Shown piece after piece: positions 12,757-53,800 of a stretch of DNA of 64,000 bases. The stretch's first letter is position 1, and each line of letters opens with the position of its first letter. Source of the stretch: Candidatus Omnitrophota bacterium (GTDB taxonomy: Bacteria; Omnitrophota; Gorgyraeia; JABMRG01; JAFGKX01); contig JAZDPX010000023.1 in assembly GCA_043797125.1 (NCBI GenBank), positions 67,098 through 131,097 of the forward strand. Reading direction: 5' to 3'. Below the pieces are notes generated by a model. The model did no database searches and was not told where the DNA came from. It was given only the letters and a program-made list of their open reading frames with translations. The position numbers were made by a program, and so were the translations under genes.

Positions 12757-12782
12757 CAAATATCCTTTTTATTTTTATGCGT

Positions 12783-13035: not shown

Positions 13036-13111
13036 GCCCACGTAGCTCAGCTGGTAGAGCAGGGCTTTCGTAAAGCTCAGGTCGTCCGTTCAAGTCGGAC
13101 CGTGGGCTCCA
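13036..13111 (+). tRNA. tRNA-Thr (anticodon CGU), CCA encoded
   Basis: acceptor GCCCACG/CGTGGGC, anticodon loop TTCGTAA, T-arm GTCCG-TTCAAGT-CGGAC. Confidence 0.85.
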
Positions 13112-18206: not shown

Positions 18207-18212
18207 ACCGAC

Positions 18213-18821: not shown

Positions 18822-18822
18822 T

Positions 18823-24821: not shown

Positions 24822-24898
24822 TGCGGGGTGGAGCAGCCAGGTAGCTCGACAGGCTCATAACCTGTAGGTCCTCGGTTCAAATCCGAGCCCCGCTACCA
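24822..24898 (+). tRNA. tRNA-Met (CAU), initiator-like (position 1:72 unpaired; acceptor, D and T arms closely resemble bacterial tRNA-fMet), CCA encoded
   Basis: TGCGGGG...CCCCGCT acceptor with 1:72 mismatch, anticodon loop CTCATAA, T-arm CTCGG-TTCAAAT-CCGAG. Confidence 0.85.
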
Positions 24899-27037: not shown

Positions 27038-27080
27038 TTATACAGCTTGTGATTAGATGATACTGTTGTGATACGGTTAA
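27038..27080 (+). repeat. three degenerate direct repeats (TGATACAGTT, ATGATACTGTT, GTGATACGGTT) overlapping the putative promoter, 5' leader and RBS of the efflux operon; same family as 11077-11100 and 38134-38157
   Basis: read directly; TTGACA at 27007-27012. Confidence 0.6.
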
Positions 27081-27092
27081 AAAAAGGAGACG

Positions 27093-29632: not shown

Positions 29633-29636
29633 GGGG

Positions 29637-31094: not shown

Positions 31095-31462
31095 AAAAGA
31101 ATATACTATTTACCATAGCAGGCCTGATTTTATTTTTAGCCGTCATATTTTTTTTAAAATATCCCCCGCAAACCGATAAAAGTAACCAGTTTAACCCCGC
31201 GGCAAAAACGCTTTGCGAATCAGCGGTTTCGTATATGGAAAAGGGTGATTTTACAATTGCGATCGAGAATTTAAAAAAGGCAATAAAAATAGACCCTAGG
31301 TATCCTAAGCCGGAATACGCCCTGGCGGTTTGTTACCTCCGCATGGAGCCGCCGGATTTAAATGCGGCAAAAGAGCATTATGAGAAATCAAAAGGGCTGG
31401 GTTATCATCCGCCGGAATGGTTCGAAAGGCATTTGAGGAAACTGGAAGGAAAAGAAAAGTAA
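31091..31462 (+). CDS. small TPR-like protein with an N-terminal TM or signal
   Basis: SYMEKGDFTIAIENLKKAIKIDPRYPKPEYALAVCYLRM. Confidence 0.45.
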   Translation: MKKNILFTIAGLILFLAVIFFLKYPPQTDKSNQFNPAAKTLCESAVSYMEKGDFTIAIENLKKAIKIDPRYPKPEYALAVCYLRMEPPDLNAAKEHYEKSKGLGYHPPEWFERHLRKLEGKEK

Positions 31463-31471
31463 AACAAAACA

Positions 31472-34400
31472 ATGGCGCTGCCTGATTTTGCGGTAAAAAG
31501 GCCGGTTACCACGGCCATGATTTTTTTATTTACGCTGCTTTTAGGGGTTATATCCTTAAGCCGGCTGCCTCAGGAATTGTACCCTCCGATAACATATCCT
31601 CAATTAACAATAGTCACATTTTATAAAGATGCCGCGCCCGAAGAGATGGAGATACTGATAACGAAGAAGGTCGAGGAGGCGGCCGGCACGGTAAGCGGAG
31701 TGCGCCGCATAAACTCAACATCAAAAGAAGAACTGTCTTTAGTTATAGCCGAATTTTCCTGGGGCACGGATATGGATTTTGCGGGCTTGGGGGTGCGCGA
31801 AAAGATAGACCTGATCAAGGAGTCCCTGCCAAGAGGCTGCGAAGACCCGGTTGTGATGAAATATAACCCGTTTGAGCTCCCCGTCGTAGTTTTGAACATA
31901 ACAGGAGAAGATATCGCCCCGGGAGATCTGCAACACACCGTAAGAAACATTATTAAAAATGAGCTGGAAAAAGCCGACGGCGTTGCGTCGGTCAACATCT
32001 TAGGCGGCGCGACAAGGGAAATTTTGGTTGAAGTAAACCAGGATAAAATGATGTCCAAAGGCCTCGCAATCACGGATATAACAGAGGCCCTGAATAAGGC
32101 CAACTTGAATTACCCGGCAGGGACGGTGGAAGAGCAATTTTACGAATACCTTATAAGGACAATGGGCGAATTTAAAGTGGTTCCGGAAATAAAAGAAGTG
32201 GTTGTCGGCATAGACGACAGGACAAAAAAAGACAGATTCCAGGAATACGGACAGGAAGACCAGAAGGAGAAACAGGAACGCAGCGTCCAGAATAAACGCC
32301 TTATAATGTTAAAAGAAATAGCGGCCATAAAAGACACTTTCAAGGAAAAAACCTCCGTATCCAGGTATAACCAAAAAGACAGCATATCCATCTCAATTCA
32401 AAAGCAGGCAGGCACAAATACCGTCGCGGTCGCCAACAGCATAAAGGGAGTTTTAAAGCAGCTCAAAGAAATGCTGCCTGCCGGCATAAAGATAAATCTT
32501 GTCTATGACCAGTCTAAGTTTATAAAAGGGGCTATAGCCGGGGTAGGGGATGCGGCGTGGCAGGGCGGCATATTGGCCTTTTTGGTATTGTATTTTTTCT
32601 TAAGGAATTTTTGGAGTTCGTTCATAGTAACCCTTAATATCCCCATTTCGATTATGGTTACTTTCGCCCTTATGTATTTCAGCGGCATTACGTTGAATAT
32701 GATATCTTTAGGAGGCCTTGCGTTAGGCGTAGGCATGCTGGTGGATGCCGGCATCGTTGTAATAGAAAATATATATAGGCATACCCAGGAAGGCAAAAGT
32801 TCGAAAGAGGCAAGCATATACGGCACAAACGAAGTCGCAGGGGCGATAGCGGGTTCTATCCTGACCACAATAGCGGTTTTTTTGCCGATGATATTTGTGA
32901 TAGGAATAGCCGGGCAGTTGTTTAAGGAGCTGGCCTTTACCGTAACATTTTCTCTTTTGGCTTCATGGGCAGTGTCTTTGACGCTTATGCCGCTTTTCGC
33001 TTCCCGCCAACGGCGCATACCTGAAGTTGAAAAAACCAAGAATCAGACAGGGGCGTTGGTTAACATCCTTGACAACATACACAAATTAAACGATAAGGCG
33101 CTTCTTATCTTTTTAAACCACAAAGCAATTGCCCTGACAGCCGTATTTTTTATATTTTTAACAGCCTGTGTTTTATTGCCGTTTATAGATAAGGAATTAT
33201 TACCGCGCGTAGACCAAGGGCAATTTATAATAAAGCTTAATATGCCCCCAGGCACGAAACTCGAGACCACAGATTCGGTGGCGAAGAAAATAGAAAATAG
33301 TTTATTTGATTGCACGGAGGTTAAAGAAGTAACGGTGAGCATAGGTTCCAGCAAGGAAAAAAAAGGCGAACAGCTGCTTGAAACTATGGGGCCGCATCAG
33401 GGGCAGATAATAGTTACGTTAAAACCAAAAGCCCGCCTGGGCAGAACCGGAGCGGGGTATCGCACAAAATCCACTTCACAGGTTGTGCAGAGGCTAAAAA
33501 GTTCGCTTAGCGGGCAAAATCTGTCGGGCGCGGACGTTAATTATATATTGCAGGAGAGCATCTTCGGCGGGGCATTTCAGTCGGGTAAGCCGATTGTGAT
33601 AGAGGTTAAGGGGCAGGAAATAGCGAAACTAAAGGAAATTTGTGACGAGATAAAAACAGAATTAAAAAGAATAACCGGCCTTTACGGGATAGAAGACGAC
33701 CTTGTTCCCGCCTCCCCCGAAATCAAAGCGAATGTGAACAAAGAAAAGGCCTCTAACTACAATCTTTCAGTAAGCGATATAGCGTTGACGGCGCAGACCG
33801 CGGTCAAGGGTTATACGGCCACCAAATTTAAACAGGAAGGAAGAGAGATAGATATAACCGTAAGGCTAAGAGAAAAAGACCGCAATAGAATGGAAAAGGT
33901 AAGGCGGCTAAGCCTGCATTCGCCGTTGGGTATGGATGTGCCTTTGGCCGAAGTCGCGTATTTAACAAAGGGCACAGGCCCTACGGAAATAAAAAGGCTG
34001 GATCAGCAAAGAACCGTCTTGATAACCGCCAGCATACTTAACAGAAGTTTTAACGAGGCATCTTCGGATGTTGAATCTGCGCTGAAAAAAATAAAAACCC
34101 ATCGCGGGTATTCGGTAGAATTAACCGGCGAAAAACAGGAAATGCGGGAATCATTCAGCAGCTTAATGTTCGCGCTGATACTTTCGGTTGTTTTGGTTTA
34201 CATGATTATGGCCGCGCAATTCGAATCTCTGTGGCAGCCGGTTATTATAATGTTTACCATACCATTGTCCCTGATAGGCGTCATACTGGTGCTTTTTGTG
34301 ACCCATACCCCCATAAACGCGATGGTTATTCTTGGCGTTATTATATTAGGCGGCGTAGTGGTGGATAACGCCATCGTGCTTATAGATTATGTAAATACAC

Positions 34401-35053
34401 TTAGAAAAGAAGGGCTGCCTGTTTATGAAGCCTTGGTTAAAGCAAGCCATACAAGGCTCAGGCCGATTCTTATGACTTCGCTTACGACAATTTTCGGCCT
34501 GATACCTCTTGGCCTCGGAATAGGCGAGGGCGCGGAGCTGCAGCGGCCCATGGCCATAACGATTATGGGAGGCCTTACAGTGGCCACCTTTTTCTCTTTA
34601 GTCGTAATTCCCACTTTATACCTGAGCTTTGAGGGCATCGGAGCAAGGTTTAGAAGGCCGCAGCCAGTTGTAGAAGCGGCGGAAGAAAAGCCTTCCGAAC
34701 CCATGCCCATGGAAATAAAACCTCCGCAGAAATTTGAAATACTTCTGCCTCCGAAAGAAGAGCCAAAAAAGCTAATAGAACTTCCTCCACCGGCAAAAGA
34801 AACACCGACGCCCGCTACCGCAGAAAGAGGCGGCATTCCAGTTGAAATATGGAATTCCTTAACAACAAGGCAGCAGGAGTTGGTAGAATATTTAAGGAAG
34901 AACCTTAAGGTTACAAGAAAACAATATTCTGATATCTTCAATATTTCCATACCCACCGCAGCCAGAGACCTGAAATTCCTTACGGACAGCAATATCCTGG
35001 AATTTAAGGGCCCGGCAGGGCCTGGCAGATATTATATGCTTAAAGGACTTTGA
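31472..35053 (+). CDS. RND (AcrB/HAE1-type) efflux permease with an ~180-aa C-terminal tail ending in a DeoR-like winged-helix motif
   Basis: 12-TM AcrB architecture (MALPDFAVKRPVTTAMIF..., DNAIVVIENIYRH); tail ...TRQQELVEYLRKNLKVTRKQYSDIFNISIPTAARDLKFLTDSNILEFKG. Confidence 0.85.
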   Translation: MALPDFAVKRPVTTAMIFLFTLLLGVISLSRLPQELYPPITYPQLTIVTFYKDAAPEEMEILITKKVEEAAGTVSGVRRINSTSKEELSLVIAEFSWGTDMDFAGLGVREKIDLIKESLPRGCEDPVVMKYNPFELPVVVLNITGEDIAPGDLQHTVRNIIKNELEKADGVASVNILGGATREILVEVNQDKMMSKGLAITDITEALNKANLNYPAGTVEEQFYEYLIRTMGEFKVVPEIKEVVVGIDDRTKKDRFQEYGQEDQKEKQERSVQNKRLIMLKEIAAIKDTFKEKTSVSRYNQKDSISISIQKQAGTNTVAVANSIKGVLKQLKEMLPAGIKINLVYDQSKFIKGAIAGVGDAAWQGGILAFLVLYFFLRNFWSSFIVTLNIPISIMVTFALMYFSGITLNMISLGGLALGVGMLVDAGIVVIENIYRHTQEGKSSKEASIYGTNEVAGAIAGSILTTIAVFLPMIFVIGIAGQLFKELAFTVTFSLLASWAVSLTLMPLFASRQRRIPEVEKTKNQTGALVNILDNIHKLNDKALLIFLNHKAIALTAVFFIFLTACVLLPFIDKELLPRVDQGQFIIKLNMPPGTKLETTDSVAKKIENSLFDCTEVKEVTVSIGSSKEKKGEQLLETMGPHQGQIIVTLKPKARLGRTGAGYRTKSTSQVVQRLKSSLSGQNLSGADVNYILQESIFGGAFQSGKPIVIEVKGQEIAKLKEICDEIKTELKRITGLYGIEDDLVPASPEIKANVNKEKASNYNLSVSDIALTAQTAVKGYTATKFKQEGREIDITVRLREKDRNRMEKVRRLSLHSPLGMDVPLAEVAYLTKGTGPTEIKRLDQQRTVLITASILNRSFNEASSDVESALKKIKTHRGYSVELTGEKQEMRESFSSLMFALILSVVLVYMIMAAQFESLWQPVIIMFTIPLSLIGVILVLFVTHTPINAMVILGVIILGGVVVDNAIVLIDYVNTLRKEGLPVYEALVKASHTRLRPILMTSLTTIFGLIPLGLGIGEGAELQRPMAITIMGGLTVATFFSLVVIPTLYLSFEGIGARFRRPQPVVEAAEEKPSEPMPMEIKPPQKFEILLPPKEEPKKLIELPPPAKETPTPATAERGGIPVEIWNSLTTRQQELVEYLRKNLKVTRKQYSDIFNISIPTAARDLKFLTDSNILEFKGPAGPGRYYMLKGL

Positions 35054-38000
35054 CCATGGGCCTTCCGCAAGTTTCCGTCAACCGGCCTGTAACCATATTA
35101 ATGATATTCTCGGCAGTTATTATGGTCGGGACTATCGGCCTTCTGCATTTGCCTATCGAACTTCTACCGAATTTTAGTTTCGGCGACATATCTATTTTTA
35201 TAAATATACGCGGCGGAATACCGCCGGAAGAAGTAGAAGCCCAGGTAAGCGTGCCCATAGAAGATGCCGTAGGCAGCGTAAGCCACCTGCGAGACTTGGT
35301 CTCCATATCGGAAGAGGGACAGTCAAGAGTTGTAATGCGATTTGAGCCGGGCATAAACATGGATTACGCCGCCTTAGAGGTGAGAGAAAAATTCGGCAGG
35401 ATAAGAAGCAAGCTCCCAAAACAGATAGAAAAGCCCGTCATAGCCAAATTTGAGCAGCAGGATTACCCTATCCTGATAACCGCTGTTACCGGCGGAATAA
35501 ACTACACGCCGGAGGCGCTAAGAAAGATAGTTGACGAGACCATAAAAGAACAGATATTACGGGTTGAGGGCGTCGCCAATGTTGACGTAGGGGGAGGCAG
35601 AGAGCGCAAAATTTTAGTGGAGGTTGACCAGACGAAACTTCAGGCCTACAGGCTGCCCATAGGCAAAGTAATAAATGCCTTAAATTTGAATAACCTCGAT
35701 TTGCTTTTAGGGGAACTTGAAAGAAAGAGGGATAAATACCTTATACGCGTCCTGGGCGGCTTCAGGAATATCGATGATATAAAGTCTGTCGGCGTGGCGA
35801 CTACGCCGAGCGGCTCTATCATTAAAGTCAGCGACGTAGCAGAGGTCAAAGATTCGTATCTTGAGGCAACCAGTTATGCGAGGGTCAATGTGTTGCCCGT
35901 AGTATCTTTATATATTCAAAAAGAATCGCAGGCAAACACAGTCGAGGTGATAAGAAAGATACAAAAAGTAAAGGAAGCCCTGACATTCGGCGTGCTTGAT
36001 AAAAGAATTAGGTTGATAGATACTTACAACCAGGCCAACTCAATAATCCAGGCTATTGACGGCGTAAAGACGAGCTTGATATATGGGGCATTTTTGGCCA
36101 TTCTGGTGCTGTGGTTATTTTTGAGGGATGCCCGCTCTACCTTTATTATCGCTACGGCCATTCCCATTTCGGTTATCGGCACTTTTATCCTTATGTTTTT
36201 TCAGAAGATAACATTGAATGTTATGACATTAAGCGGCCTGGCTATCGGCGTGGGCATGCTTGTCGATAATGCCATTGTGGTATTGGAGAATATATCGACG
36301 CTGAAGGAAAAAGCCGTAGAGAGGGTAAAGGCATCGATAGACGGCTGCCAAGAGATGACCCTGGCCATTGTAGCCTCTACCCTGACTACAGTCGTTGTGT
36401 TTTTGCCGATCGTCTTTGTAAATAAAGAGATACGCATTCTATACAGCGGCCTGGCATTTACAGTAGCCTATTCTTTATTAGCCTCTTTGATCGTCGCGCT
36501 TACCCTTGTGCCTATGTTATCGGCGCGGCTGCCCGCCTTGCGTTTGATCAGGCGCAAGAGTCCGCCGCGGGCAAAAAGGCGGTTACGCGCTAAAACCTTC
36601 CTGACATTTTTCAAAAGGGCGTATCGTAAAATGCTGGCAGGCGCGTTAAGGTGGCGTTATATACTGCTCGCGGTTGCATTTTGTATTTTTGCCGTAGCGG
36701 TTTTTTTAATAGTATTTAAGATTGACAAGGAATTTGTGGGCACAACCGAACAGCAGGATTTTACCATATTTATAGAATTGCCGACGGGAGCAAAATTAGA
36801 CATTTCCGACAAGGCGGTAAAGGGCGTTGAGGAGATATTGCAGACGATCCCAGAGATTAAGCAGTTTTCATCCAGGGTCGAAAAATGGTCGTCCAAGGTT
36901 TATTGTAAATTGGTCCCAATGGGGCAACGTTCGCGTTCCACAAAAGACATTATAGACGATTTAAGGACCAGGATAGAGGACGTGGAAAGAAAATACAGAG
37001 AGGCATTCATATATTTTGAAGAGCCGCAGGAAGTCGAGACAAACGAGATTATTGTCGAGATATTCGGTTATGATTACAAGGTCCTGAATGAGCTCGCGAT
37101 AGAGATGCTTACCAAGATGCAGTCCGTGGACGGCCTGGTTGATTTGAAAATTAGATGGAGAAAAGGTCGCCCCGAATGGTGGATTATGGTAAACAGGCAG
37201 AAGGCGGCGCTGTATGGTTTTTCCGTCGACGAAATTGCCAATACCGTCCACGCCCAGATGAGGGGCCTAAGGGCTACGTTATATCATACCGAAGGCAAGG
37301 AAGTTGAAGTTATCGCGAGACTGCAGGAGAAAGACCGCCGCACGCTGGATGCCTTGCGTAAGCTTACCATGATAAGGCAGGACGGGACGGCGGTTTATCT
37401 TGATCAGATGGTGGATTTCTCGCCGGATATGGGCCCGAGCAAAATATGGAGAAAAAATAAATCCAGGATGATTCAGATAAGCGCAAACAGGGGAAGGCTC
37501 GCGTTCGGAACAGCGGCGCAAAAGATTAAAAAGGCGCTGGCTGATATGAAAATGCCGAAGGATTATTATTATAGCTTCGGGGAGAATTACTGGAGAATGA
37601 TACAGAATCAAAAGGAACTTATGTTTGCCCTCAGCCTCACTATTGTATTGATCTATCTGGTGCTGGCTTCCTTATTCGAGTCATACGCGCAGCCGTTTAT
37701 CATAATGATAACAGTTCCGTTAGCGGCTATCGGTGTCTCGGCAGCTTTGCTTATCACTAAAAAGACAATAAACGTCGGTATGCTAATGGGCGCAATTATG
37801 CTCGGGGGAATAGTGGTGAATAATGCAATTATACTTGTCGATTATATTAACCGGTTAAGAGAAAAAAAGATAGCGTTTTTAAAGTGTATTTTGAAGGCCT
37901 CGCAGGACAGGCTAAGGCCTATTATGATGACCACCGGCACAACTGTTTTAGGGCTTCTTCCTATGGCAATGGATAAAAGCGAACAAGCCAACCTTTGGTC

Positions 38001-38136
38001 ACCGCTGGCTATAACTGTTATGGGCGGACTTATTAGCTCAACAGCATTAACCTTATTTATAGTTCCTGGTATGTACCTAATTTTCGGTGATATCGGCAGA
38101 TATATCTCGTTTAATACAAAGAAGTTATGGAAATGA
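35050..38136 (+). CDS. second RND (AcrB-type) efflux permease, overlaps upstream gene by 4 nt
   Basis: MGLPQVSVNRPVTILMIF..., two large periplasmic loops, 12 TM. Confidence 0.85.
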   Translation: MTMGLPQVSVNRPVTILMIFSAVIMVGTIGLLHLPIELLPNFSFGDISIFINIRGGIPPEEVEAQVSVPIEDAVGSVSHLRDLVSISEEGQSRVVMRFEPGINMDYAALEVREKFGRIRSKLPKQIEKPVIAKFEQQDYPILITAVTGGINYTPEALRKIVDETIKEQILRVEGVANVDVGGGRERKILVEVDQTKLQAYRLPIGKVINALNLNNLDLLLGELERKRDKYLIRVLGGFRNIDDIKSVGVATTPSGSIIKVSDVAEVKDSYLEATSYARVNVLPVVSLYIQKESQANTVEVIRKIQKVKEALTFGVLDKRIRLIDTYNQANSIIQAIDGVKTSLIYGAFLAILVLWLFLRDARSTFIIATAIPISVIGTFILMFFQKITLNVMTLSGLAIGVGMLVDNAIVVLENISTLKEKAVERVKASIDGCQEMTLAIVASTLTTVVVFLPIVFVNKEIRILYSGLAFTVAYSLLASLIVALTLVPMLSARLPALRLIRRKSPPRAKRRLRAKTFLTFFKRAYRKMLAGALRWRYILLAVAFCIFAVAVFLIVFKIDKEFVGTTEQQDFTIFIELPTGAKLDISDKAVKGVEEILQTIPEIKQFSSRVEKWSSKVYCKLVPMGQRSRSTKDIIDDLRTRIEDVERKYREAFIYFEEPQEVETNEIIVEIFGYDYKVLNELAIEMLTKMQSVDGLVDLKIRWRKGRPEWWIMVNRQKAALYGFSVDEIANTVHAQMRGLRATLYHTEGKEVEVIARLQEKDRRTLDALRKLTMIRQDGTAVYLDQMVDFSPDMGPSKIWRKNKSRMIQISANRGRLAFGTAAQKIKKALADMKMPKDYYYSFGENYWRMIQNQKELMFALSLTIVLIYLVLASLFESYAQPFIIMITVPLAAIGVSAALLITKKTINVGMLMGAIMLGGIVVNNAIILVDYINRLREKKIAFLKCILKASQDRLRPIMMTTGTTVLGLLPMAMDKSEQANLWSPLAITVMGGLISSTALTLFIVPGMYLIFGDIGRYISFNTKKLWK

Positions 38137-38159: not shown

Positions 38160-38520
38160 TCGTAAGCCATTCCCGTAAAAACACGCTCCAGATTTGGGCA
38201 AAACTATAGTCGTTCGGCCGGGGCCCCTCCGAAATTCCCTCGTGGGTTTTTACAGAGAAGAAGTCCTCGGTCAGTTTCGGTGTCCCCAGCCTGCCTGCCT
38301 GACGGTAGGCAGGCACTCCTATGTTTTGCCTACAACCAAAACTAGCAAGCCAAATCTTCCGCTATTGTTTTTACGGGAATGGCTTATTCGCTTTGGGTGC
38401 AAAAGATTTGGAAAATTTTTTTATGTCTCGCTCACAATGCCCCTTCGCTGTCATTCCCGCGAAACCTGTCCCCGCGAAAAAGGGGAGCGAGGATGACAAG
38501 CTGTTGCTTGTACTTTTTTA
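38160..38520. repeat. intergenic REP/MITE-like palindromic elements: 17-bp inverted repeat GCCATTCCCGTAAAAAC (38168) / GTTTTTACGGGAATGGC (38378); hairpin GCCTGCCTGCCTGACGGTAGGCAGGCAC (38285-38312); inverted copy of TTTCGCGGGAATGAC at 38450-38464; segments similar to 640-790
   Basis: read directly. Confidence 0.55.
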
Positions 38521-38548
38521 TTGACAATATAATTATTATATATATAAT
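38521..38548 (+). promoter_or_regulatory. sigma70 consensus promoter (TTGACA, 16 bp spacer, TATAAT) ~270 nt upstream of the giant ORF; second candidate TTGACT, 17 bp spacer, TATACT at 38666-38694
   Basis: read directly. Confidence 0.45.
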
Positions 38549-38818: not shown

Positions 38819-41800
38819 ATGATAAAACAGGCTACGGGAAGATATAGTTTTATTTTAAAAGCTATAAGTCTTACTATAGCCTTTTGTTTTACTATACAGC
38901 AGATCTGCTGGGGCGCAGACGGAACGCATCTTTGGAGTTTGATAAAAGGCAACCAGGTATTAAATGCTCAAGCAAGCGATTTCGTTAAGCTTCGCGATAT
39001 TTCCATCCCCGAAGATTACGGCATTGTCAGAGAAATTTTTGATGCCGGCAACAACCGCGTAATAATCCACATACAAGACGCGCACTCGAATTTAGGCGCG
39101 CAGGAATCTATAAGCAGGCTCCTTGACGCTTTAGAAAAAAGCTACAACCTCAGACTGGTTTCTCTTGAAGGCGCCTACGGTTTCGTGGATACCTCTACGC
39201 TTTCATGCCATCCGGATAACAGCACAAGAAAAGACCTTGCCAGGTATTTCCTGAATCGCGGCAAAATTAACGCCGCGGAATACTATAAAATAACATCAAA
39301 ATCCAGAGTGAAATTATACGGCGCAGAAACCCCCCAACTTTACAGGGATAATATCGCCGCTTATGTGGAATCGCTTGCCAATAAAGGCGAAATTCACAAA
39401 GCAATTATTACGCTAAAAAAGACATCTCAGGATTTGAAAGAAAAGGCCTACACAAAAAGCTTATTGGAACTGGATGCGAAAAGCATAGCCTATAAAACCG
39501 AAGGCATATCCTTTAAAGAATACTGGCAATATTTGGGCAACATAGCCCGTTCTTTATCGATAGATATATCCGGATATGAAAACGTGTCCCTGCTTCTTAA
39601 GGCATCCGCCTTGGAGGAAAAGACTGATTTTAAAAAAGCCGAACAGCAGCGAAAGGAGCTTATAGATATAATTTCGGATAAGCTCCCAAAGGATGACATA
39701 AAAGGACTGCTTGAAGAAAGCGTGTCTTTCGGATTGAATAAAATCCCGGCCTCCACCTTTCATAAGCACCTATTCGATTTAGCCGCAAAGGCCGGAACAG
39801 ACCCGGCAAAGTATCCGGACATCAGCAATTACGGCCAATATATCAATATGCACGAGTCCATATCCCAGGACAGGCTTTTTGAGGAAATTGATGAATTGGC
39901 GCTGCAGATAGAGGAAAAGTTATTCCAGAACGACGAGCAAAGACAGCTCGCAAAAGTGGCAAGAAACGCTGATATATTAGTAGACCTTCTGGACGCAAAG
40001 ATAATAAATAAAGACCTCGCGTATTATAAAACCCACCGCGATGAATTTATTCCCCAGGCGATAGCGCATAAGCTTACCAAGCTGATGGTAAAGCATAATA
40101 TAACCGCGAATCTGGTGCCTGATATGAGGGTTGTGGCAAAGGCCCTTCCGGTAGTAGAAAGATTTTACGATGTCGCCGAAAAAAGAAACAAGGCCCTGGT
40201 TGAAAACACCCTTGCCAAGATGGAAAAAGATAAGCGCCAGTTGTCGGTTTTAATAACAGGCGGTTTTCATACGGAAGGAATAAAGGAATTGCTGAAAGAC
40301 AAAGGCGTCTCTTACGTAGTCGTGCTTCCAAAATTCTCCCATAACGCGTTAGAGAGGCCGTATGAGGATGTCATCTTAAATAAGAAAGAGCCGTTTGAGG
40401 AAATACTTTCAAATAACGAATACTACCTCGCCCCCGCAAGCATATTCTCTAATTTTCAAAACAATCTTGAAATTCTTGTTGCCATGGCTACGTTAGGCAT
40501 GTACCTGGGCGTAACCTGGATAAAAGAAAATAAAGACCCAACCGAGCAAATACCCGCCTTGCTGAATATTTTAGGGTTAGAAAGACAGAGCATAATAAGA
40601 GAGGGCGAAACCCCCGGGCCAGTTGAATTAAGCCAGATAAAGAATGCTTTTAGTTTCGACTTTGTATTTGAAAATGAAAACGATAAAGGAACTTCTATTT
40701 TGGCGCATTTTCACAATAATTTTTTCAGGATAACAAGGTATAAAAACCCGGAACAGCAAGAAAGGCCTTTCGATATACTGCTTCTGGAAGGCGATGAAAA
40801 AATATCTGCCGCGGCATCGTTTAAGAAGCCCGCGTTAGCAGCTAAACAGCCCAGCGAAGAGGCCCAGCAGATAGTTGACAGCCTTGTTTTAGCGCAAAGG
40901 AGCATTACTAAAGAGGCCGATGAAAAACTTCAGGCGCAGTTTAAAATTAAAATATTGGAGCTTTTGGATGCAATAGAAACACCGGACGATTTTGAGGGCG
41001 CTACATTTAAAATCAAGCTGGGTAAACTTGTAAGGAATTATGATTTTAACGAAACTCTTAAACAGCAGATAGTTGATGATTTTATAAAAAGGAAAAAAGA
41101 TGAACTGAAGCCTGGACTTACTCAATCCTTTAAGAGAAAAGAAGCAGAGAGAAAAAAGGCGGAGCAAATAGAAGAGAAAATAGTAAAAAGCATAAGAATC
41201 AAGACAGAGGAGCTTAGTAAAACCGATCAGGCTGCGCTTGCGGATATCGTAGCGATTCATAATTCGCTTTACGATTTAAAAAAGAGCCTGCTTGAGGTAA
41301 GGCAAGAGCTAAAGGCTTTGCGAACCGACTGTTTTGATGCAGGCGCAATAATTGACTGGAACGAATGGGAGTACGACCCTGATAATCCCGACCGGATCTA
41401 CCAGATAAAAGCCCCAGAATCATACACAGCTACAAGAAACCCTGAAGACGGAAAATTTTATGTTAATACCGACGCGGGCGGCAGAGGATACGGGCCTGCA
41501 ACACCCAGCCCTGATGAGCTTGAGGAAGCCGAAGCAGTAAAAGCTATTCAAGAAAAACTGAATGAACTGTTTGAGCAAGCGAAAGAAGCGCATAAGAAAA
41601 CTTTAGAGATATTCAAAGAAAAGGCACCGCATGCGACTTTGCTGGGCAAGATTTTAAACGAAAGGAAGAGTGACACAACTAAGGCCTTCTATGCATACAA
41701 GCAACAGCTGTCAGGCCTGCAAAGCAAATCCAAAAACAAGGACAGGTTTGACAGTATAATAAACGGCCCTGTTAAAAAGATAGATGAATATTTTTCGGAA

Positions 41801-44800
41801 ATTGATAACGAGATAGAACTTCTCGTTGAGCTTTTTACAGACACAATAAAGCAGCCGACAGAAGGCTTAAACTCTGCGCTGGCGTCAATAGAAACGCAAG
41901 AATTGCCGGATATCATAAAGTTGATAAACAAGGCAATCGATGAGTACGAGTCAATACAAAAGGCTTATGAGAAGGCAGTGCTTGAATTAGGAATCTGGCG
42001 GCAGTTTGAAGAAAACAACCCGGATAAACAGGTTGCAGAAAAAATTGAGAAAATGCTATTAAGCATTAAAAACGTCAACACCGTGTATAAAAACGCGACA
42101 GGCGAAATGTATAAAAGCGACAAAATAACTGATCGTATAAAAAGCGCCTACGAAAATGCGCAGAAATTGTTTGAAGCCGAAGCGGACGAGGCTAAAGAAG
42201 CGCTAAAGACAGAGCAAATCCGTAAGACCCTAAAGCCGAAAGACCCTACCATAAAAGGGCTAGCTGAATTGTTAACGCTATATTCAAAAAAACACAACAA
42301 ACAACTTTTTTCGTATTCATACGCAGACATGGAAACAATTGTGGAATTAGCAAAACTGGTTAATCTGCCGGTTGATTGTACGCACGTATTCGATGTTATA
42401 GATAAAAAGCGCAAGGAACATAGGCAAAAAGTAGATGCTGAATTCCAGAATTTGGTGAATGAAGCAATAGGAAATACGGTTGCCGAAGCAGAACAGATAG
42501 CTACTGAGGCAAAAAAGGAAGTTATTGCTGGGTTTGAGCCAGAAAAGGTTACAGCATTTATTGACATGCTTGCCGAGAAACAAAAAGCAATAATGGAATC
42601 CGGCATGGTCCCAGGGTATGAAAATTTTATAGCAAATTCGGAAGTGTGGTTTGCCTTTGATGGCAAAACCGGCGAAGAGTCACGAGACATTACAGCAGAA
42701 AAATTTCATGATTTAATGGATAAGGCAATGGGTCTTAGTCTGAGCATAGATCAGCATATAGCAAGTCAGATAATAGATAATGCCGAAAATCTACTACAGG
42801 AACAGGAAATAAACCCGGATGTAGCCAAAAGTAAAATAACGGAGATTTTTGACATAGCTGAACGACACTTTGAAGCTAAAAAAAAGGAATACTGGTTTGA
42901 CGGCGCTCTACAAGAGCTATCAGAAGAACAAGGTATTTTATTTAACTCTATAACTACAGAGTTAGTGCAAAAAAAGAAGGAATGCCTTGATAAAATTGAG
43001 AAATTAGAAAAAACCCAAGAAACAATTGAAGGAGAAGAGACGCCTCTGACATCTGTTGATCTGGAGAAAGAGATAAATGAAATCCTTGAAAAGGAAGAAG
43101 AGAAGCCCCCTGTTATCGAGGAGGACGTATTCGAACTCATTGAAAAAATAGAAGAGAAAGAAGACGAGACACAAAAGGAAGAAGAAAAACTGGAAAGAGA
43201 AACCGAGCTTAAGGATTTGATTAAGCAGGAAAAAGAAAGGCAAACAAAAGCAGAAGACGAACAGAAGCCAAAAATCGAAGAAACAACAACGGAACAATTA
43301 GCGAAAGAAGTTGAAAAATTAGTAAGCGGGCTTTCCGATGGCGAACTTAAGGCCATAGAAGAGCTCAGGGTAATGTTGTATGAAAACGAAGACAACGCTG
43401 AAAACGCAAAGTTTCTTGAGCTTTACAATAAGGCAAAGCAGGCTTTTGAAAAGGCCATGGAGGCGGCATTAGGCAAAGACTACGAAGAAGGTTTGAGGCC
43501 ATGGCAAGAGGCAGGGGCAAAAGCGCTTTTATCAGGCAGGCTGCTTAAGCTCAAGGCGGGTAAAGGTAAGACATTGTCAGCGGAACTGGCGTTTTATATT
43601 ATGGCGCTCGGCATAATAGAAAGGCATAAAAGAAAAGACTTAAAAACCCAAAAAGACGCCATTATATTCACCGCGCATAACGAGAAAATGGCCAGGGATA
43701 ATGCGAAAGAAGCGGCAAAGGTGCTGGGCTGTTTACACGAGGAAATTAAAATAGTGCGCCTCAAGCCTAACCCAGAAGGCGGGGAGCCGCTGGCGTATAT
43801 CTACGATAAACATGGCGACGCTACGTCAATAACGCTTAAAAGCGCCTTTGAACAAGGCACTATTTTTGTCGGCACGCCTGATGTGTTTATCCACCGCGCC
43901 GGTACAGAGAGAAGAACGGCGGACAGCGACGAAATTTATTTTTTGAAGAGAGAATATAATTTGGTATGTGATGAAGTTGACCTGCCCGCCATGTATAACC
44001 TGGCGATGCCTCATAATATAGCGATGCCGGTTGACCAGGGAAGCGACCATTATAAATACGGTGTAGCCTTTGCCGAGAAGGCAATGGAAATAGCGTTAGC
44101 AATGCAGGGCTTACCCGGCCAATATTATGAGATCCCTGAGGGTTCTAAAACCGTTATATTGACAGAAGGAACGTTTGGCAAAAACGGAGTGAAATTTACG
44201 CGGGAGTTTATTAAGGAAGATACCGAAATACAAAATATCGATTATCTTAGAAACTTAAGCATTGACGAATGGGTAGAACAGGTTGAGGCATCGCTGGCCG
44301 CGTTAAAGTGTTTTCGTATAGATGATGATTACAGAATAGAAAACGGCGAAATTGTTATCATATGTAAAGTAACAGGCGCTTCCCTGCGCGGCAGCAGGTG
44401 GAATTACGGTATTCATACCGCCGTAGAAGTAAAAGAGGTTGTGATAAATCAACAAAAGATTGAAATACATCCTCCTGCTTCAGAAACAGCTGTGTCTATG
44501 GCATTTAATACATTCTTGCGCGTAAACAATATAAAAGGCAGGCCCCTTATAAAAAGAGACAGTACAGCAGAATCAACAAAAGGAAAATTCACAGGCATGA
44601 GCGCTACTATTGACGAGGTGTTTTTCATTAAAATTCATGGTTTAAAAACAGCGGATATGGGAGATATTGTAGATAAATGGGAAAAGAAAAATGGCTATCC
44701 GGAACTTGATATAGAGCCAACCGAGCTATATATGACAAACAACGAAAAATGGGCTGCTATACTGGCAAAGGTAAAACAGATTCATACTGATGAAGAAAGC

Positions 44801-47800
44801 AAGGAATATAGAAGGCCTATATATATGCATGTTGAGGATAAGGATATAGATTATGCGAAAGAAGTGATAACCAAATTAGGGCTTATTGACGCAGAGATAA
44901 AAGTGATAAAGGCAGCTTACAGCGAAGAAGAAATAAAAGATATGAGAAAAGAGTTAGGCTTGCAAAAAAGATCTGACATAAGCAACGATGAAATTGAGGA
45001 AAAGGCTATTGATAAATACCTAGAGAAAGCCGGTTTCCTTGGCAGAATAACGCTTGTTACGCATTTAGGTGGTCGCGGCGTTAATCCCAAACTGCCGAAA
45101 GAAGGCAGCCTAGAAAGAGATTTTGTAATCAAAGCAGGCGGCCTTCTGACAATCTCTACTTCTGTTGATGAACTTGAAGATACGGAAATACAGTTCCAGA
45201 ACAGGGCCGCGAGAAACCAGGAACCCGGCGGTTACAAAGCATACTGGTCTATGCAGGATACTCTTATAAGCGTAGAAGCCAAAAAGGCACTTTCTGAGTC
45301 ATATCCTAAACTGGAGAATATTTTAAGCAGGGATAAACCAGATAAAAAGCTGATTAAGAAAATAGTCGGGCGTATACGTGAGGTTATAAAAGAAAAAAGG
45401 ATATATAGCGCGACTGAGCAGGAACAGATGCAGGAGGAGCTTGATAAATATAACGATGAATTTTTAAGAGGGTTTGCCCTTCTGCGGAATAAACAAGGAT
45501 TCTATGATGACGTAGTAATGCAAGCTGCGGATAACAAAGCTTACATTGAAAAGGCAGCAAGTGAAATAGCTGAAATTATAACGCAAAAAGACGAAAAGGA
45601 TAAAAAGGCGGAACTGGCAACGCAGATTAAACGCAGGATTATGAATGTAAGCGAGGCTGCGCAATTGAATATGGGCGAGCAGGAGCGTAATCGCCTTGAT
45701 TCAGCCTGTAATTTTATGGCTGATAAATTGTTATCAGAAGCAAATAAGGCGTCCCTAACAGGCGCGATTACCCGCTATATCGAAGAATACATAAGAGAGC
45801 AATTTATACATATAACGGAAGAAGGCTCAGTCAGCTTCTTAAGCAGGGCTGAAAAATTAAAATTCCAGTTAGACAGATTTATTACAAGGTATGGCGAATT
45901 AAACCAGCAAGCCTTGCCTTTTGACAAGGTTAGCGCGTATAAGGTGCTGATTAAGCAATTTGCGTATGAAGAAAAACTCAAGATGGACAAGGAAAAGGCC
46001 GCCATATTATATTCATTCACGGAAAAAGGCGCCGAAGAATATAAAAAGGCGATTGAGAAAAAGGCCGCGTTAGACGCTCAAATGAACCGGCATATAGACG
46101 GGGTATTTAAGGATATTCAGGAATTGACGTCAGAGTTAGCAAGCATCGCGGCAGAACTCATCGAAATTTATGTAGAAATGGAAAAATTCATCGAAGAGAC
46201 AGCGAGTGAGATAGCTGAAATTGTAACGCTGGCAGAAGACGCCGCGAAAGAGCTGGCAACGCAGATTAAGCGCAGGATTATGAACGTAGACGAAGACACA
46301 GAGAACAATATGGACAAGGAAAAACGCGACAAGCTCAATTTATACTGCCTTGCTACAGCAGTTAACTTGTTGCTTGAGATGACAATAAGCGAAGCGCCGT
46401 TAAAAGATGTAATCGCCGGCTGGATTGCGCAATACATAAAAAAGATATCCAAGCAGATGGAAGGAAAAGAGATTAAAGAAGAAGAGATTGAAGAAAAAGA
46501 AGAAGTCCCTCCCGAAGAAGAAGTTGAAGAAGCGCCCGAAGAGTTGCCTGTTCCTGAAGAAATAACAGAAATAGAGGCTCCTGTTTCGGGCCTGAAGTAT
46601 TTTTGGACAAGGCTTCTGCCCTTAGCGTCAATTTTTGGAATTGGATGGCTATTATACAGGTGGCTGTTTAATTTTATAGGGCTAAACACAATAATTAAAA
46701 TGGCCGCGCAAGGAGATGTTGGCGGTATAGGAAGCATTATACCAAATATTTTATCAGGCAATACAGGCATTCCTATGTGGGTTTTGATTGCGGTAATAGG
46801 AATTTCACTTGCCATATACTTTATTACCAAGCCCCTTATGGAAAAATTTAACAGCATAAAAGCGGAAGCTCCGGTAAGAGAATATTTTGGTGGCGTGCTC
46901 AAGTTTTCTCCGGCAGCTTTACCAACAGTTTTTTTATTTGTTACGACAATCTTATCCATCGGTTTATTTTTTCCGAGCATTATAATTGTAGTGCTTGCGA
47001 CAATAAAAGGCGTGTCTGTAGCGGGGGTTTTAGCAGGAGCGCTTAACGCAGTCGCAATATTAAGCGTTTTGGCTGCGGCCTCACAATTAATAATGGTAAG
47101 GATGTATTACAGCGCCAATAAGGAGACACCACAGCAGCAAATAGGCAAGCCAAAAAGATTCTTCAGGGCTTTTACAGCCTCTGTTATGGCTTCCGCAACC
47201 ATATTTTTGCCTTTTGTCATCTTAACTTATGCAAATCCAATTGCGTATGTTCTCAGCGTATTTTTGGCAGTAGTGTGGTATATAGCTGTTCTTGCGCACA
47301 GGGCAATAAGGGCAGGATTATATAAAGGCTTATCGCAGTTTATGCGCGATGTAATAGGAGGGGAAAGGTTTATTCAGCCTGAAGCGCATATGAAATGGTC
47401 TTATACCGGGGTGATAACAGGCGTCGCATTTTATACGCTGCTTTTAAGAGTTTCGCTTGCAGCCTGGGCAATGCCTGCGGCGATATTTTTATTAGGCATT
47501 TTTACCATTAACCTGATTTTTTATTTAAAGGCGCAATATACACAGTCAAAACTAATGTCTAAATTTGTAGACGCAGACACGAAATTCAAATTTATTATTC
47601 AGGATGCAATAATCTACTGCAGGAAACTCGTGCCGTCCGCGGCAGCTGCCGGCTCTGCGGCAGGTTTTCTGTGGGATACGTTGACCAAGGACATGACTCC
47701 CATATCTTCCACAACCCTCTTAGTGATAGGCGCTGTTTTGGTAGGCGTGCTTTTAATATCCATCGCGGCAAAATCGCGTATTCATACCCGGCTTTCCTAT

Positions 47801-50800: not shown

Positions 50801-53800
50801 TTAGATTCGGTCGCAACACCTCCCGCGGGCGTCGCCACCTTAATGGTTTATTATATGTCAGGCGTATTTTCGCTTTTTGAAAGATTAGGGATTGATTATG
50901 AAAAAGGCCCGGCGGAAACAGGTTTTTGGTTTTCCGCACAAGAGATGCTGGAAGACATAAAGAGCTACTTTTTTACATATAAGAAAATAAAAGAATGGGG
51001 GACAAAGCGGGGTAATATTTCGCACTTCAAAGAAGAGATTAGTTCTTATGAAGCCTTGAGAAAGCCCCTACAAGAAGAATATGCGGAATTCTCGGAAGCA
51101 GAGAAGAGGTTAGGCGAGATAGCCGCTTTGATGGAAGAACATAAAGACGCAACCGGCCTGCCGGAATATAAGGAAATCGAGGATGAGATAAACAGGGCCT
51201 TGGCAGACTATAGGCAAGAAGACGAATCCAAAAAAGACGCGTTTGCTTTATACCGCGATGTTAGAAATAAAAGGGCCAGGGCAGAGGCTGAGCTTGAGGC
51301 TGTAAACCTTAAGCTTGAAGTTTTGAAGATGCAGGAAGAAAGCCTGCGCGCAAACGATACTTCGCCTGAGTATCCGGTGCTTATCCAGCAAATAAAGATA
51401 AAAGAGGCAGAATCAGAGATAGCCAAGAAAAAACGCGATTTGGGCATCGCGGTATTGCTTCTGGAATTTGAAGACATAAAAAAGGCCAAAGGCATCTTTT
51501 CGGATGAGGCGAAAAAGAAAGAGATTGAAATCGCGGACGCGGAAAGAGAAATAGATATCTTAAACAGCGAAAAGGCGCAGCGGGAGCGGGAGCTTGAAAT
51601 AGCAAGATACGATGCGCAGATGGAAACCGGAAGACAGGCAATTCCGTTATCAGCCGGATATGTAGGAAGCGAAGTGCTGGGGATAGTGGAACTTATTAAA
51701 AAGTACGAGCCCCTGAAGAACCATCCGGCGCTTACGGACGCGAGGCTGACAACGCGTTTTGCGATATTTACGGATGAGCTTAAGGATGTAGTTAAAATAC
51801 TGCAAAAAGACTTGGGCCTTGCGGAAACCGGCATATTTGACGAGAAGACGAGAATAGCGCTTATTGACGCATTAATAAAGCAACTGGAGAAGCAAAACAA
51901 TGACGAAGCTGACTGGATTAAGTTTTTAGAGACAGAAGAATACAGGCAGTTAAACAGAGAAAAGGTGCATAAAAAGCACCTGGTGGCGGATGGCGTAACA
52001 AAGGCTGTGCCCGGCCTTGAGAAAGCAAAAATTATTTCGCAAGAAGATCTCGCGGAGGCCCTTAATGCGGACAGCGTAGAAATAAGGCAATTGTTTGAAG
52101 AAATCCTTAAAAAGGCGCAAGATAAACAGAATCGTGAAATAGCGCGGCAGATAAAGGATATTATATCGCGAATCATAGATCTGGAAATCATGCAGAAAAA
52201 AATAGAAAAGGCCGGCACCGAATACAACCAGAAAGAATATGAAAAAGAAGAAAGAGACCTGCGCATACTCATACTCACCGCAGAGATAGACAAATTAAAT
52301 GCCGAAAAGGCGTTATTGGAGAATTCCGCAAACAAGCCGGCTTTGGTGGATAAAAATAACGCGGAAGCCGCCGTTAGCGCATTGGAAATCTTGTCGAAAT
52401 CCCCGACAAAGGCGCAGACAAGGTTCCTTACGGGTATTAAAAAACAGATAAAAGAGTTAGAGAGAGAACAGTGTTATGCCGCCTTCTGCAAGATGCTTTT
52501 GGGGTATGACGAAAAGAAGGACTCAGCGGGCGCCGGCTGCATCAGATGGTTTATGCAGCATATAACCGATTTAAAGCTGGAAGACAACGAAATTATGAAA
52601 GAGGCGTTTATTCAATTTTTAACCGAGCCAGGCAATATCATGTTGCCTTTCGCGCCTTTAAGGCAGGTTTTGATGGAAAAGGAATTAAGCGGGTTTTTAA
52701 ACAACGAAAAATTGCGCACGCAAAAGGCGAGGGAATTTTATTCGATAGAGTTGCAGGTTCAGGCAAGGGTAAAGGTTTTAACATTAAAAGACAAGGTTGA
52801 TGAAAGCGCTAAAGAATATGCGGATAAAGCCATCGAATTATTTAAAAAAGACGCAAAATACATAACCGACATAGATAAAATTACCCTGCTTAGATTTGCC
52901 GCCATACACCATAAAAACATAGCTGATTACGCCCTGGCTTATTATTCCGAACTTCATCAAAAATGGCTTGTCAGAAACCAGGTTCAAGAAGCGGGCCCGT
53001 CGGTTAGCAGCGAAGCTGCCAAGGTATTAAAAGAGGCGACTGAAAAAGGTTTTGAGATAGCAGAAAGAGAAATTAAATTTATTCTTGAATCAGAAAAACT
53101 AACAGCAAAAGAAAAAGAATTAGAAGAAAAGATAAAAAACAACAGCGTTGAAAATGCGGATTATCTTGAGTATTGGAGCCTTAAACTTCAATACTTAATT
53201 GAATGGCGCAACATAGTAAAACAAAAGTTTGAAAACCCGGTTTACTTGGATTGGGCATTGCCTATAATGGAAAAGCACCCCCATGTATACACTGACGCAG
53301 ACAAGCAAAATTACGCTCAGCTAAAAGATATATCTAAAGACGAAAAGGCCAAAGATGACTTTAATAGAGACATAATGCAGCATCAGGAGGCATTCGCGTG
53401 GGTAAATAAACGCATTGAGATCGATAAAAAAGAACAGGCCATAGCGGCTATTAAAGACAAAGATTCGATAGAGTTCGCGCTGGCGGATGCCGGCCTTGCG
53501 GTAAAACAGGCAGAGTTAAAAATAACGGAACTTTCTCCTTTGTTTATTCTTTGGCTTACCGGGGTAATAACGCTAAAAGATAAGGACGGTATTATACAAG
53601 ACCCTATCCTGGGCGAAGCCCAAAAGAGGTTATTGAGTTATATCAAAATGACAGGCACTAATACCGATACTCTTATACGCCTGGCGCGCGAACTTGCAGA
53701 AGGAACACAAAATTCCGAATATTTAAAATATGCCGTTGGCACAGAGGCTATCGCGGCCGAAAGCTGGCTGAAGTTTATTGAGGCCAAAAAGGCGGGCGTT

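Follow-up and report, generated by a model that had tools for sequence, protein, structure and literature searches.

A SecA-like motor core embedded in a giant membrane protein from a putative Omnitrophota genome

Comparisons by Pfam, PDB search, hhalign and Foldseek agree with one another and confirm, at the level of sequence, that a giant membrane protein contains a SecA-type motor core some 1,550 aa from its N-terminus, as an earlier note on this DNA had claimed. The protein is encoded in a window of 64,000 nucleotides, by which we mean the whole stretch of DNA analyzed in this study. Its module is assigned by sequence to a divergent clade of SecA-like motors found in giant membrane proteins of Omnitrophota. 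An Omnitrophota host is also supported for the window itself: the three best matches of its enolase are Omnitrophota MAGs (74-76% identity), and the relatives of the motor module are annotated as Omnitrophota. An embedded SecA-like motor was already described in 2023, and the window provides a new, very divergent example.

The ORF scan of the window revealed that the frame 38795-64000 (plus strand, frame 2) is free of stop codons over 25.2 kb. A gene boundary flanking the module was looked for and, since the frame holds no stop, none exists. All of the peptide strings quoted in the earlier note were found in this frame, each at the coordinates assigned to it, and the segment then attributed to SecA (nt 43480-45270) corresponds to aa 1555-2151 as numbered from the ATG at 38819. 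This ATG is preceded by a G-rich, RBS-like stretch, and the upstream neighbour of the giant ORF is an RND efflux operon. The hydrophobic helix close to the N-terminus resembles a signal peptide or an N-in anchor, and the N-termini of two relatives (P0245 and P0271) are similar to it. Pfam and PDB were both searched with the conserved N-terminal domain and gave no match. Dockerin, glycosyl hydrolase, C39 peptidase and other type-defining domains were not detected in the 8,394 aa of the giant protein that the window encodes, and no canonical secA was found within the 64-kb window. The positions of all features were listed in Table 1.

Table 1. Features of the giant ORF and its upstream region (nt, position in the window; aa, numbered from the ATG at 38819)
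Feature	aa	nt	Strand	Remarks
Terminator-like hairpin		38496-38511		directly before the promoter-like site
Promoter-like site, TTGACA-16-TATAAT		38521-38548	+	perfect consensus, consensus match only; ~270 nt 5' of the giant-ORF start
Giant ORF	at least 8,394 aa	38819-64000	+	runs past the window end
N-terminal hydrophobic helix	11-29	38849-38905	+	hydropathy 1.66
Conserved N-terminal domain, 'IHIQDAH' motif	62-543	39002-40447	+	matches P0271 residues 68-556, E=6e-75
NBD1, first part	~1540-1745	43436-44053	+	SecA_DEAD E=2e-4; E. coli K108, D209, E210, D212 retained
Wider Walker A motif block	1578-1586	43550-43576	+	
Walker A, AGKGKT	1580-1585	43559-43573 (G1581-T1585)	+	aligns with E. coli K108/T109
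Walker B, DEVD	1718-1721	43970-43981	+	aligns with E. coli D209-D212
PPXD	~1746-1905	44054-44533	+	Pfam match aa 1766-1870, nt 44114-44428
NBD1, second part		44534-44698	+	
Motif III, GMSAT	1926-1930	44594-44608	+	in NBD1, second part
NBD2	~1961-2160	44699-45298	+	P-loop_SecA match; E. coli R509, Q570, R574, R577 retained
Motif V, GGRGVN	2084-2089		+	in NBD2
Motif VI, QFQNRAAR	2125-2132	45191-45214	+	in NBD2
Helical region after NBD2	~2161-2390	45299-45988	+	predicted helical, low pLDDT
Polytopic membrane domain	2603-2987	46625-47779	+	~8-11 hydrophobic helices, from hydropathy

The module occupies aa ~1540-2160 with a collinear NBD1-PPXD-NBD2 order. Upon Pfam analysis of the giant protein, SecA_PP_bind (50.2 bits, E=4.6e-13, cutoff 23.5) and P-loop_SecA (33.1 bits, cutoff 27) exceeded their cutoffs, whereas SecA_DEAD (21.0 bits) remained slightly under its cutoff of 24.6; the latter model scored 32-68 bits in the relatives. 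The SecA_PP_bind match sits between Walker B and motif III, that is, as a PPXD inserted into NBD1. The PPXD is specific to SecA and makes its polypeptide clamp. In the PDB sequence search, all 25 matches were SecA or SecA2 (best E=4.7e-17), arranged in three collinear blocks of which the PPXD scored highest; the SecA2 matches scored below the SecA matches, and this search gave no sign that the module is closer to SecA2 than to SecA1. The profile of the clade aligned with that of canonical SecA over 688 columns (hhalign, E=3.1e-68). The module shares 26% identity with E. coli K-12 SecA at 659 aligned positions, compared with 49-60% among canonical SecAs. The resemblance to SecA in these comparisons far exceeds what chance would produce. 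Structure prediction, proposed earlier as a check, pointed the same way: the top 36 Foldseek PDB matches of the AlphaFold model were SecA or SecA2 (E=4e-25 to 1e-11), a fold match that is partly circular because the input alignment consisted of canonical SecAs, and that was obtained with a mediocre model (pLDDT 61, PPXD below 50).

To call the module a complete SecA, as had been done, was an overstatement, since only NBD1-PPXD-NBD2 is clearly present in the sequence. Neither the window protein nor any of three relatives gave a Pfam match to SecA_SW or SEC-C, and a wing-region HMM was not significant on the clade sequences. The region after NBD2, when compared alone with canonical SecA, gave a collinear hhalign match (probability 71%, E=3.9e-5), and the canonical scaffold and finger HMMs reached just 2-6 bits on clade members, which is not significant, though at the expected positions. 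This region may possibly be a remnant of a degenerate SecA scaffold and two-helix finger.

An exhaustive HMMER search covered a library that stands for about 15 billion proteins. Its top eight matches were embedded modules with 82-156 bits, and canonical SecAs scored 77 bits or less. The relatives' modules are located inside long proteins of Omnitrophota MAGs (up to 5,423 aa, mostly truncated by contig ends), and the window protein shows at most ~31% identity to any relative in the library. In the NJ phylogeny, which had likewise been suggested as a check, the embedded modules were split from canonical SecA in 100 of 100 bootstraps, with long-branch attraction possible in such a distance method.

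A membrane domain of about 8-11 helices is joined to the motor by a helical linker in every sufficiently long relative, and the TM cluster starts 235-520 aa past motif VI in all ten members long enough to show it. These domains are homologous; the TM-domain profile of the relatives matched the window protein with 31 bits (E=1.1e-9), as against 4.5 bits or less for 200 shuffles. SecY (PF00344) or any other Pfam family was not matched at E<=1 by the TM domains of eight members, and the AlphaFold model of the domain (pLDDT 47.5) was too poor for fold comparison. As for topology, P0245 and P0271 have no second hydrophobic segment N-terminal to the motor, so that together with the signal-peptide-like N-terminus a naive prediction would place the ATPase outside the cytoplasm. 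The positive-inside count (159 versus 105 overall, 38 versus 8 in the cleanest member) is only suggestive.

Taken at its most probable, the module is an active Omnitrophota SecA-like motor, held at the membrane by the fused TM domain, which would export or insert its own giant protein; we favour this reading with reasonable though far from full confidence, the ATPase activity and the substrate both being putative. The motor would be a cytoplasm-facing ATPase, tethered to the membrane by the TM domain in place of the usual C-terminal domains of SecA, and its PPXD clamp would grip an unfolded polypeptide. It would power the export of parts of its own giant protein, or their insertion into the membrane, via SecYEG or assisted by the fused TM domain. 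The self-export engine suggested in the earlier note coincides with a role proposed in the literature for giant proteins with SecA-like domains (West-Roberts et al., bioRxiv 10.1101/2023.11.21.568195). The position of the cassette varies among the giant proteins; because it lies close to the C-terminus in P0121 and in the proteins of West-Roberts et al., a scheme in which the motor is made first and the cargo follows cannot be general.

There is a smaller chance that motor and TM domain work in trans, as a dedicated accessory system for export analogous to SecA2/SecY2; the cargo would then not be the giant protein but other ones, for example effectors or enzymes that degrade the cell wall. The motor and the homologous TM domain are indeed kept as a unit while their position and flanking domains vary, and P0245 carries both in only 1,726 aa, which leaves little cargo; however, P0245 is annotated as partial, the TM domain has no similarity to SecY or another Pfam family, and no conserved neighbouring substrate or chaperone genes were seen, the upstream genes of the window and of the related locus L082 not being alike.

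The earlier note had also suggested that the module may be degenerate or regulatory, and a pseudo-ATPase serving solely as a polypeptide-binding, structural or regulatory scaffold would be the corresponding alternative. Substitution is extensive: of the 247 SecA columns that are near-invariant, 130 carry substitutions and 20 are deleted, SecA_DEAD falls under its Pfam cutoff, and two segments of canonical SecA, IDEARTPLIIS and [10 protein letters not shown], are rewritten. Motif V carries D512 to N and motif VI carries R572 to Q, G573 to N and G576 to A; at D512 and R572 most relatives keep D and R, unlike the window copy, which could be weakened by these two changes. Nevertheless, alignment to K-12 SecA showed that E. 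coli K108, D209, E210, D212, R509, Q570, R574 and R577 are all kept. Of the strings quoted for E. coli, six of seven were exact against K-12 SecA, the inexact one being that of motif VI, and here the motif was misjudged: R565, R566 and R572 are lost, but the GRxGR-core arginines R574 and R577 persist as R2129 and R2132, leaving the Q...R..R core intact. All catalytic positions are conserved in ten relatives although identity is only about 25-31%, and this speaks in favour of a working ATPase. The Walker A Lys, Walker B DE, motif III, motif V RG and motif VI Q..R..R, intact across a clade with ~31% identity, bear the signature of selection on catalysis, and even the rewritten stretches carry conserved motifs particular to the clade (PLxYxxxxPFxxSGG and [ST]xxDExE..IQF) and hence are not decaying. 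The module is therefore probably not degenerate as judged from these residues, and we regard the pseudo-ATPase as improbable.

Control of the putative active motor probably differs from that of SecA. Gate1, a D217-R566 salt bridge that couples preprotein binding to ATPase activation, holds canonical SecA off until channel and preprotein engage (bioRxiv 10.1101/2021.01.18.427065; PMC3101351). The module has Y1726 in place of D217 and D2121 in place of R566, and it is the replacement of both residues that makes a different ATPase control likely. The D217 column holds Y or F in nine of ten aligned clade members and G in the remaining one (P0128), and no aligned clade member has Arg in the R566 column. 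An ATPase without this pair might, for example, stay primed at all times or be controlled by the membrane domain tethered to it. A bolder version, to which we give little credence, is that the motor and the TM domain of ~8-11 helices would constitute a self-contained, SecYEG-independent translocon, in which the motor and its channel are one covalent unit. With the Gate1 lock gone, it would thread tens of thousands of residues of its own polypeptide through the membrane; if true, the cassette would be no anchored SecA but a protein-export machine of a new type.

It is very unlikely that the module is a nucleic-acid motor of the SF2 helicase type: P0245 weakly matches generic DEAD and Helicase_C models and SF2 helicases occur among the distant fold matches, but the SecA-specific PPXD is the best-conserved part, and generic helicases enter the Foldseek list only from E=2e-6, more than five orders of magnitude behind the weakest SecA match (~1e-11). 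The idea of an ordinary stand-alone secA that an artefact of assembly or frameshift has joined to the adjacent genes is effectively refuted by the uninterrupted frame, the low identity to E. coli SecA, the lack of SecA C-terminal domains, the recurrence of the embedded architecture in independent assemblies, and the ORFs of 800-990 aa, unlike that of the window, at metagenome loci with canonical SecA.

Canonical SecA is a free-standing gene product of about 800-1000 aa. Compared with it (E. coli b0098; PDB 2fsf, 3jux and 3din), the module has the same collinear domain order, Walker A/B, motifs III, V and VI, and the PPXD core GxRWxxGxHxAxExKE; it differs in being part of a chain that exceeds 8,000 aa, where SecA is free and ~900 aa long, in that wing domain, C-terminal linker and SEC-C zinc finger were not detected, in its Y/D residues at Gate1, and in its fusion to a polytopic TM domain of its own. 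SecA2 (PDB 6sxh and 4uaq) is likewise a divergent, additional paralogue of SecA whose C-terminal region is reduced and which serves special substrates, and its structures are among the sequence and fold matches of the module, but it is a free soluble protein with a recognisable scaffold and no TM fusion.

The arrangement, called highly unusual in the earlier note, is so relative to textbook SecA, but two preprints already place it in Omnitrophota and in some actinobacterial giant proteins (bioRxiv 10.1101/2023.11.21.568195; Nielsen and Lui, bioRxiv 10.64898/2026.06.07.730766). West-Roberts et al. (bioRxiv 10.1101/2023.11.21.568195) described divergent SecA DEAD and preprotein-binding domains without scaffold or wing in Omnitrophota giant proteins; these form long branches apart from normal-length SecA, and their hosts also have a normal secA elsewhere. 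The window protein resembles theirs in having such domains in a many-TM protein of several thousand aa, with TM regions adjoining the module, no Pfam scaffold or wing, a separate long-branch clade and an Omnitrophota host. It differs in that the cassette lies ~1,550 aa from the N-terminus instead of near the C-terminus, and in its upstream RND efflux operon, type II secretion or carbohydrate import genes being emphasised there. TM-domain homology, Gate1 loss and catalytic-residue conservation were not found in the consulted passages of the preprint.

It is an open question how cells insert and export proteins that are tens of thousands of residues long, and the most concrete clue at hand is a SecA-like motor built into such a protein. 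The headline has been public as a preprint since 2023 and gains little from the window example, which nevertheless sharpens three testable points: the catalytic residues are under selection, the Gate1 pair is replaced clade-wide, and the motor always occurs with one homologous polytopic membrane domain. These points together define a compact unit of ~1,500 aa (aa ~1500-3000 of the giant protein) that could be expressed and assayed alone.

A frame without stop codons runs on the + strand from 38795 to 64000 and reaches the end of the window. Its first ATG (38819) lies 3' of a G-rich stretch resembling a ribosome-binding site, and the protein read from it (the giant protein, numbered from this ATG) is at least 8,394 aa long, the ORF continuing past the window end. 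Segment 43480-45270, described in an earlier note as a complete, possibly degenerate SecA inside this protein, corresponds to giant aa 1555-2151 and holds all the peptides quoted for it; no stop codon flanks the segment, and the scenario of a stand-alone secA does not apply. Pfam analysis of this sub-region gave matches to SecA_PP_bind (50.2 bits, E=4.6e-13, cutoff 23.5) and P-loop_SecA (33.1 bits, cutoff 27), and SecA_DEAD fell slightly below its cutoff (21.0 bits, E=2e-4, cutoff 24.6). In a sequence search of the PDB all 25 matched chains were SecA or SecA2 (best E=4.7e-17, three collinear blocks). When aligned with 60 canonical SecAs, the module (NBD1-PPXD-NBD2, giant aa ~1540-2160) was collinear across its three domains and kept 97 of the 247 near-invariant SecA columns, with 27% identity vs 60% among the canonical SecAs, and a profile built from the module together with ten relatives aligned with a canonical SecA profile at E=3.1e-68. 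The AlphaFold2 model of aa 1500-2400 was mediocre (mean pLDDT 61; NBD1 and NBD2 ~70-85, PPXD <50). In a Foldseek search of the PDB with this model, SecA or SecA2 structures filled the first 36 places (E=4e-25 to 1e-11) and generic SF2 helicases appeared from 2e-6 only, a result that is partly circular because the input alignment of AlphaFold2 consisted of SecAs. The HMM, PDB sequence and fold matches bear out the SecA-like motor of the earlier note, and the assignment of the module as a SecA motor core is solid.

The word "complete" was too strong, as neither SecA_SW nor SEC-C was detected by Pfam in the giant protein. The region 3' of NBD2 is predicted to be helical; in a profile alignment this region alone ran collinear with the scaffold and two-helix finger of SecA, the support being modest (probability 71%, E=3.9e-5), and HMMs built for the scaffold, wing and two-helix finger of canonical SecA gave no significant match to the sequences of the module's relatives. 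A remnant of the scaffold may lie 3' of NBD2; SecA's wing and C-terminal tail were rated absent from the module. A two-helix finger is not claimed despite the suggestive "QQDPYVKF" (canonical "QRDPLVEY"), because these HMMs were not significant.

When 1.84 billion cluster representatives were searched exhaustively with HMMER, 1,964 of them matched, and the eight best were modules at ~30% identity inside long proteins, not canonical SecAs, including P0121 (3,269 aa), P0122 (5,115 aa), P0126 (5,423 aa) and P0127 (2,701 aa). Nearly all of the best relatives were annotated as "hypothetical protein, partial" in Candidatus Omnitrophota MAGs, and several span their whole contig and are therefore fragments of giant genes. 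None of the representatives in that library is a close relative of the giant protein, identity never exceeding 31%. In the three relatives scanned with Pfam, SecA_DEAD reached its threshold (32-68 bits) and SecA_SW was found in none. In all 100 bootstrap replicates of a neighbour-joining analysis, a distance method with which long-branch attraction is possible, nine embedded modules, including that of the window, were set apart from 36 canonical SecAs; identity was 31% inside this clade, 49% within the canonical set and 25% between the two. Clade members were retrieved by the exhaustive HMMER search only: word-indexed searches returned canonical SecAs at ~25% identity for the module alone, no match for aa 2150-3000, and two canonical SecAs with no clade member for the clade alignment. 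A scan of genome contigs with the module found no relative, and in a scan of metagenome contigs, based on one pattern that also matches canonical SecA, L082 was the only clade locus among the 31 of 80 loci examined; its ORF is identical to the relative P0271. The HMMER matches also contained SecA-like proteins of 1,250-1,400 aa, longer than canonical SecA (P0170, P0184, P0210, P0212, P0228 and P0247), which might be intermediate architectures or fusions.

The SecA of E. coli K-12 itself was used as the reference for catalytic residues, and six of the seven E. coli strings given in the earlier note matched it exactly. The module retains Walker A (E. coli K108 and T109, here K1584 and T1585), Walker B (D209, E210 and D212; D1718, E1719 and D1721), motif V R509 (R2086) and the motif VI core (Q570, R574 and R577; Q2125, R2129 and R2132), whereas D217 (Y1726), R220 (A1729), D512 (N2089), R565 and R566 (E2120 and D2121) and R572 (Q2127) are replaced. 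The proposed loss of the motif VI arginines thus holds for R565, R566 and R572, but not for R574 and R577 of the GRxGR core. In canonical SecA, D217 and R566 pair up as the Gate1 salt bridge, whose breakage is required for activation of the SecA ATPase (bioRxiv 10.1101/2021.01.18.427065; PMC3101351), and both partners are among the replaced residues. Across relatives at ~31% overall identity, Walker A keeps the form GK[T/S] and Walker B the form DE[A/V/G]D, motif III, motif V RG and motif VI Q...R..R are likewise conserved, and two canonical segments are substituted by conserved clade-specific motifs, PLxYxxxxPFxxSGG standing where canonical SecA has SILIDEARTPLIIS and [ST]xxDExE..IQF standing in for the second. 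D512N and R572Q are private to the window copy, most relatives keeping both positions. With catalytic positions kept and altered segments conserved in the relatives, "degenerate" was an overstatement; this is the pattern that a functional, differently regulated ATPase would leave, rather than a decaying one.

A cluster of hydrophobic helices begins 235-320 aa past motif VI in the ten members long enough to show one, and this gap is 519 aa in the window protein. A profile made only from the relatives' TM domains matched giant aa 2603-2987 (E=1.1e-9, 31 bits; best of 200 shuffles 4.5 bits), so motor and polytopic domain travel as one unit. No Pfam family, SecY included, matched the TM domain at E<=1 among eight members, and its AlphaFold model (pLDDT 47.5) was too low for fold comparison. 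The N-domain of the giant protein (see table) is uncharacterised, has no match in Pfam or PDB and is common to at least two giant proteins; given its match to the N-terminus of P0271, that relative shares the entire layout, from the N-terminal helix and N-domain through the motor to the TM domain. The giant protein thus contains a SecA-type motor core whose catalytic residues are intact, followed by a conserved polytopic membrane domain to which it is fused.

The module would be an active ATPase at the cytoplasmic face, tethered by its own TM domain, which would replace the lipid- and SecY-binding C-terminal parts of SecA. The PPXD would clamp unfolded polypeptide and the motor would drive export or insertion of the giant protein's own parts, probably under altered control because Gate1 is missing. 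Topology is the main weakness of this mechanism. The N-terminus is signal-peptide-like and the relatives P0245 and P0271 have no second hydrophobic segment 5' of the motor, so a naive topology would put the ATPase outside the cytoplasm; an N-terminal helix without a clear second TM segment creates a paradox for an ATP-dependent motor. The positive-inside count of TM-domain loops leans to a cytoplasmic motor (K+R 159 vs 105 overall, 38 vs 8 in the cleanest member), and is unreliable because the TM segmentation is crude. A rival explanation is that the motor exports other proteins in trans. That the module is a pseudo-ATPase scaffold is opposed by the catalytic motifs and altered segments conserved across the clade, and a nucleic-acid helicase by the SF2 helicases trailing SecA/SecA2 in the Foldseek search. 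An assembly artefact is countered by the lack of a flanking stop codon.

Other features of the window are listed in the table. The hairpin and sigma-70 consensus suggest that the giant gene may be its own transcription unit. The RND operon encodes a TolC/OEP-like protein, a HlyD-type adaptor and a pair of AcrB paralogues. The TolC/OEP-like protein is 854 aa long, and its N-terminal extension of ~400 aa has no Pfam match; the first AcrB shows a borderline HTH_DeoR match at its C-terminus. A conserved gene neighbourhood was ruled out, lipid-metabolism genes lying upstream of L082 instead of the RND operon. The three best GTDB-genome matches of the enolase were Omnitrophota MAGs (74-76% identity), which makes Omnitrophota the most likely host, and the Rnf genes and RACo-like protein suggest anaerobic, ion-motive energy metabolism of the host. 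The MshEN-PilZ gene sits among four tRNA genes (10339-13111 and 24822-24898).

Features of the window around and within the giant gene
Feature	Position	Strand	Remark
MshEN + PilZ domain protein	11149-12291	+	c-di-GMP-binding combination
RnfC, RnfD genes	14826-17089	+	Pfam
ORFs continuing Rnf cluster	17086-19632	+	by position
RACo-like ASKHA protein	19941-21137	+	3' of Rnf cluster
Tripartite RND-type efflux operon	27068-38136	+	directly upstream of giant gene, same strand
Terminator-like hairpin	38496-38511	+	followed by sigma-70 consensus
Perfect sigma-70 consensus TTGACA-16-TATAAT	38521-38548	+	~270 nt before giant gene ATG
Signal-peptide-like N-terminal helix (or N-in anchor)	38849-38905, giant aa 11-29	+	similar at P0245 and P0271 N-termini
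N-domain with "IHIQDAH" motif	39002-40447, giant aa 62-543	+	match to P0271/L082, E=6e-75

The giant gene (38819-64000, +) shows a strong A-over-T skew (0.2-0.35), and Glu plus Lys make up as much as 31% of residues per 500-aa block. No hydrophobic segment was found beyond aa 2984 and nothing beyond aa 3000 matches the ten relatives. The sole other Pfam signal across 8,394 aa is a weak, sub-threshold PG_binding_1 match (51764-51862, +, giant aa 4316-4348, 17.6 bits vs cutoff 23), which, if real, would place the region 3' of the TM domain outside the cytoplasm.

For giant proteins that come mainly from Omnitrophota, West-Roberts et al. (bioRxiv 10.1101/2023.11.21.568195) describe SecA DEAD and preprotein-binding domains without scaffold and wing domain; these SecA domains form a separate clade with long branches, may be anchored to the membrane by neighbouring TM regions, and occur also in some actinobacterial giant proteins, and normal secA and secYEG are found elsewhere in those genomes. 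Among the long proteins of Omnitrophota, Nielsen and Lui (bioRxiv 10.64898/2026.06.07.730766) list a PF07517 architecture cluster of 20 proteins. The window module shares with the giants of West-Roberts et al. the DEAD and preprotein-binding domains, no detected SecA_SW and the separate clade, so the finding and interpretation of the earlier note rediscover a known phenomenon. The passages of both papers that were consulted contain no mention of homology of the post-motor TM domain, clade-wide loss of both Gate1 residues or residue-level conservation of the catalytic site. The window module is a further, very divergent case of already described embedded SecA-like motors, whose biology is striking but would no longer surprise a specialist.
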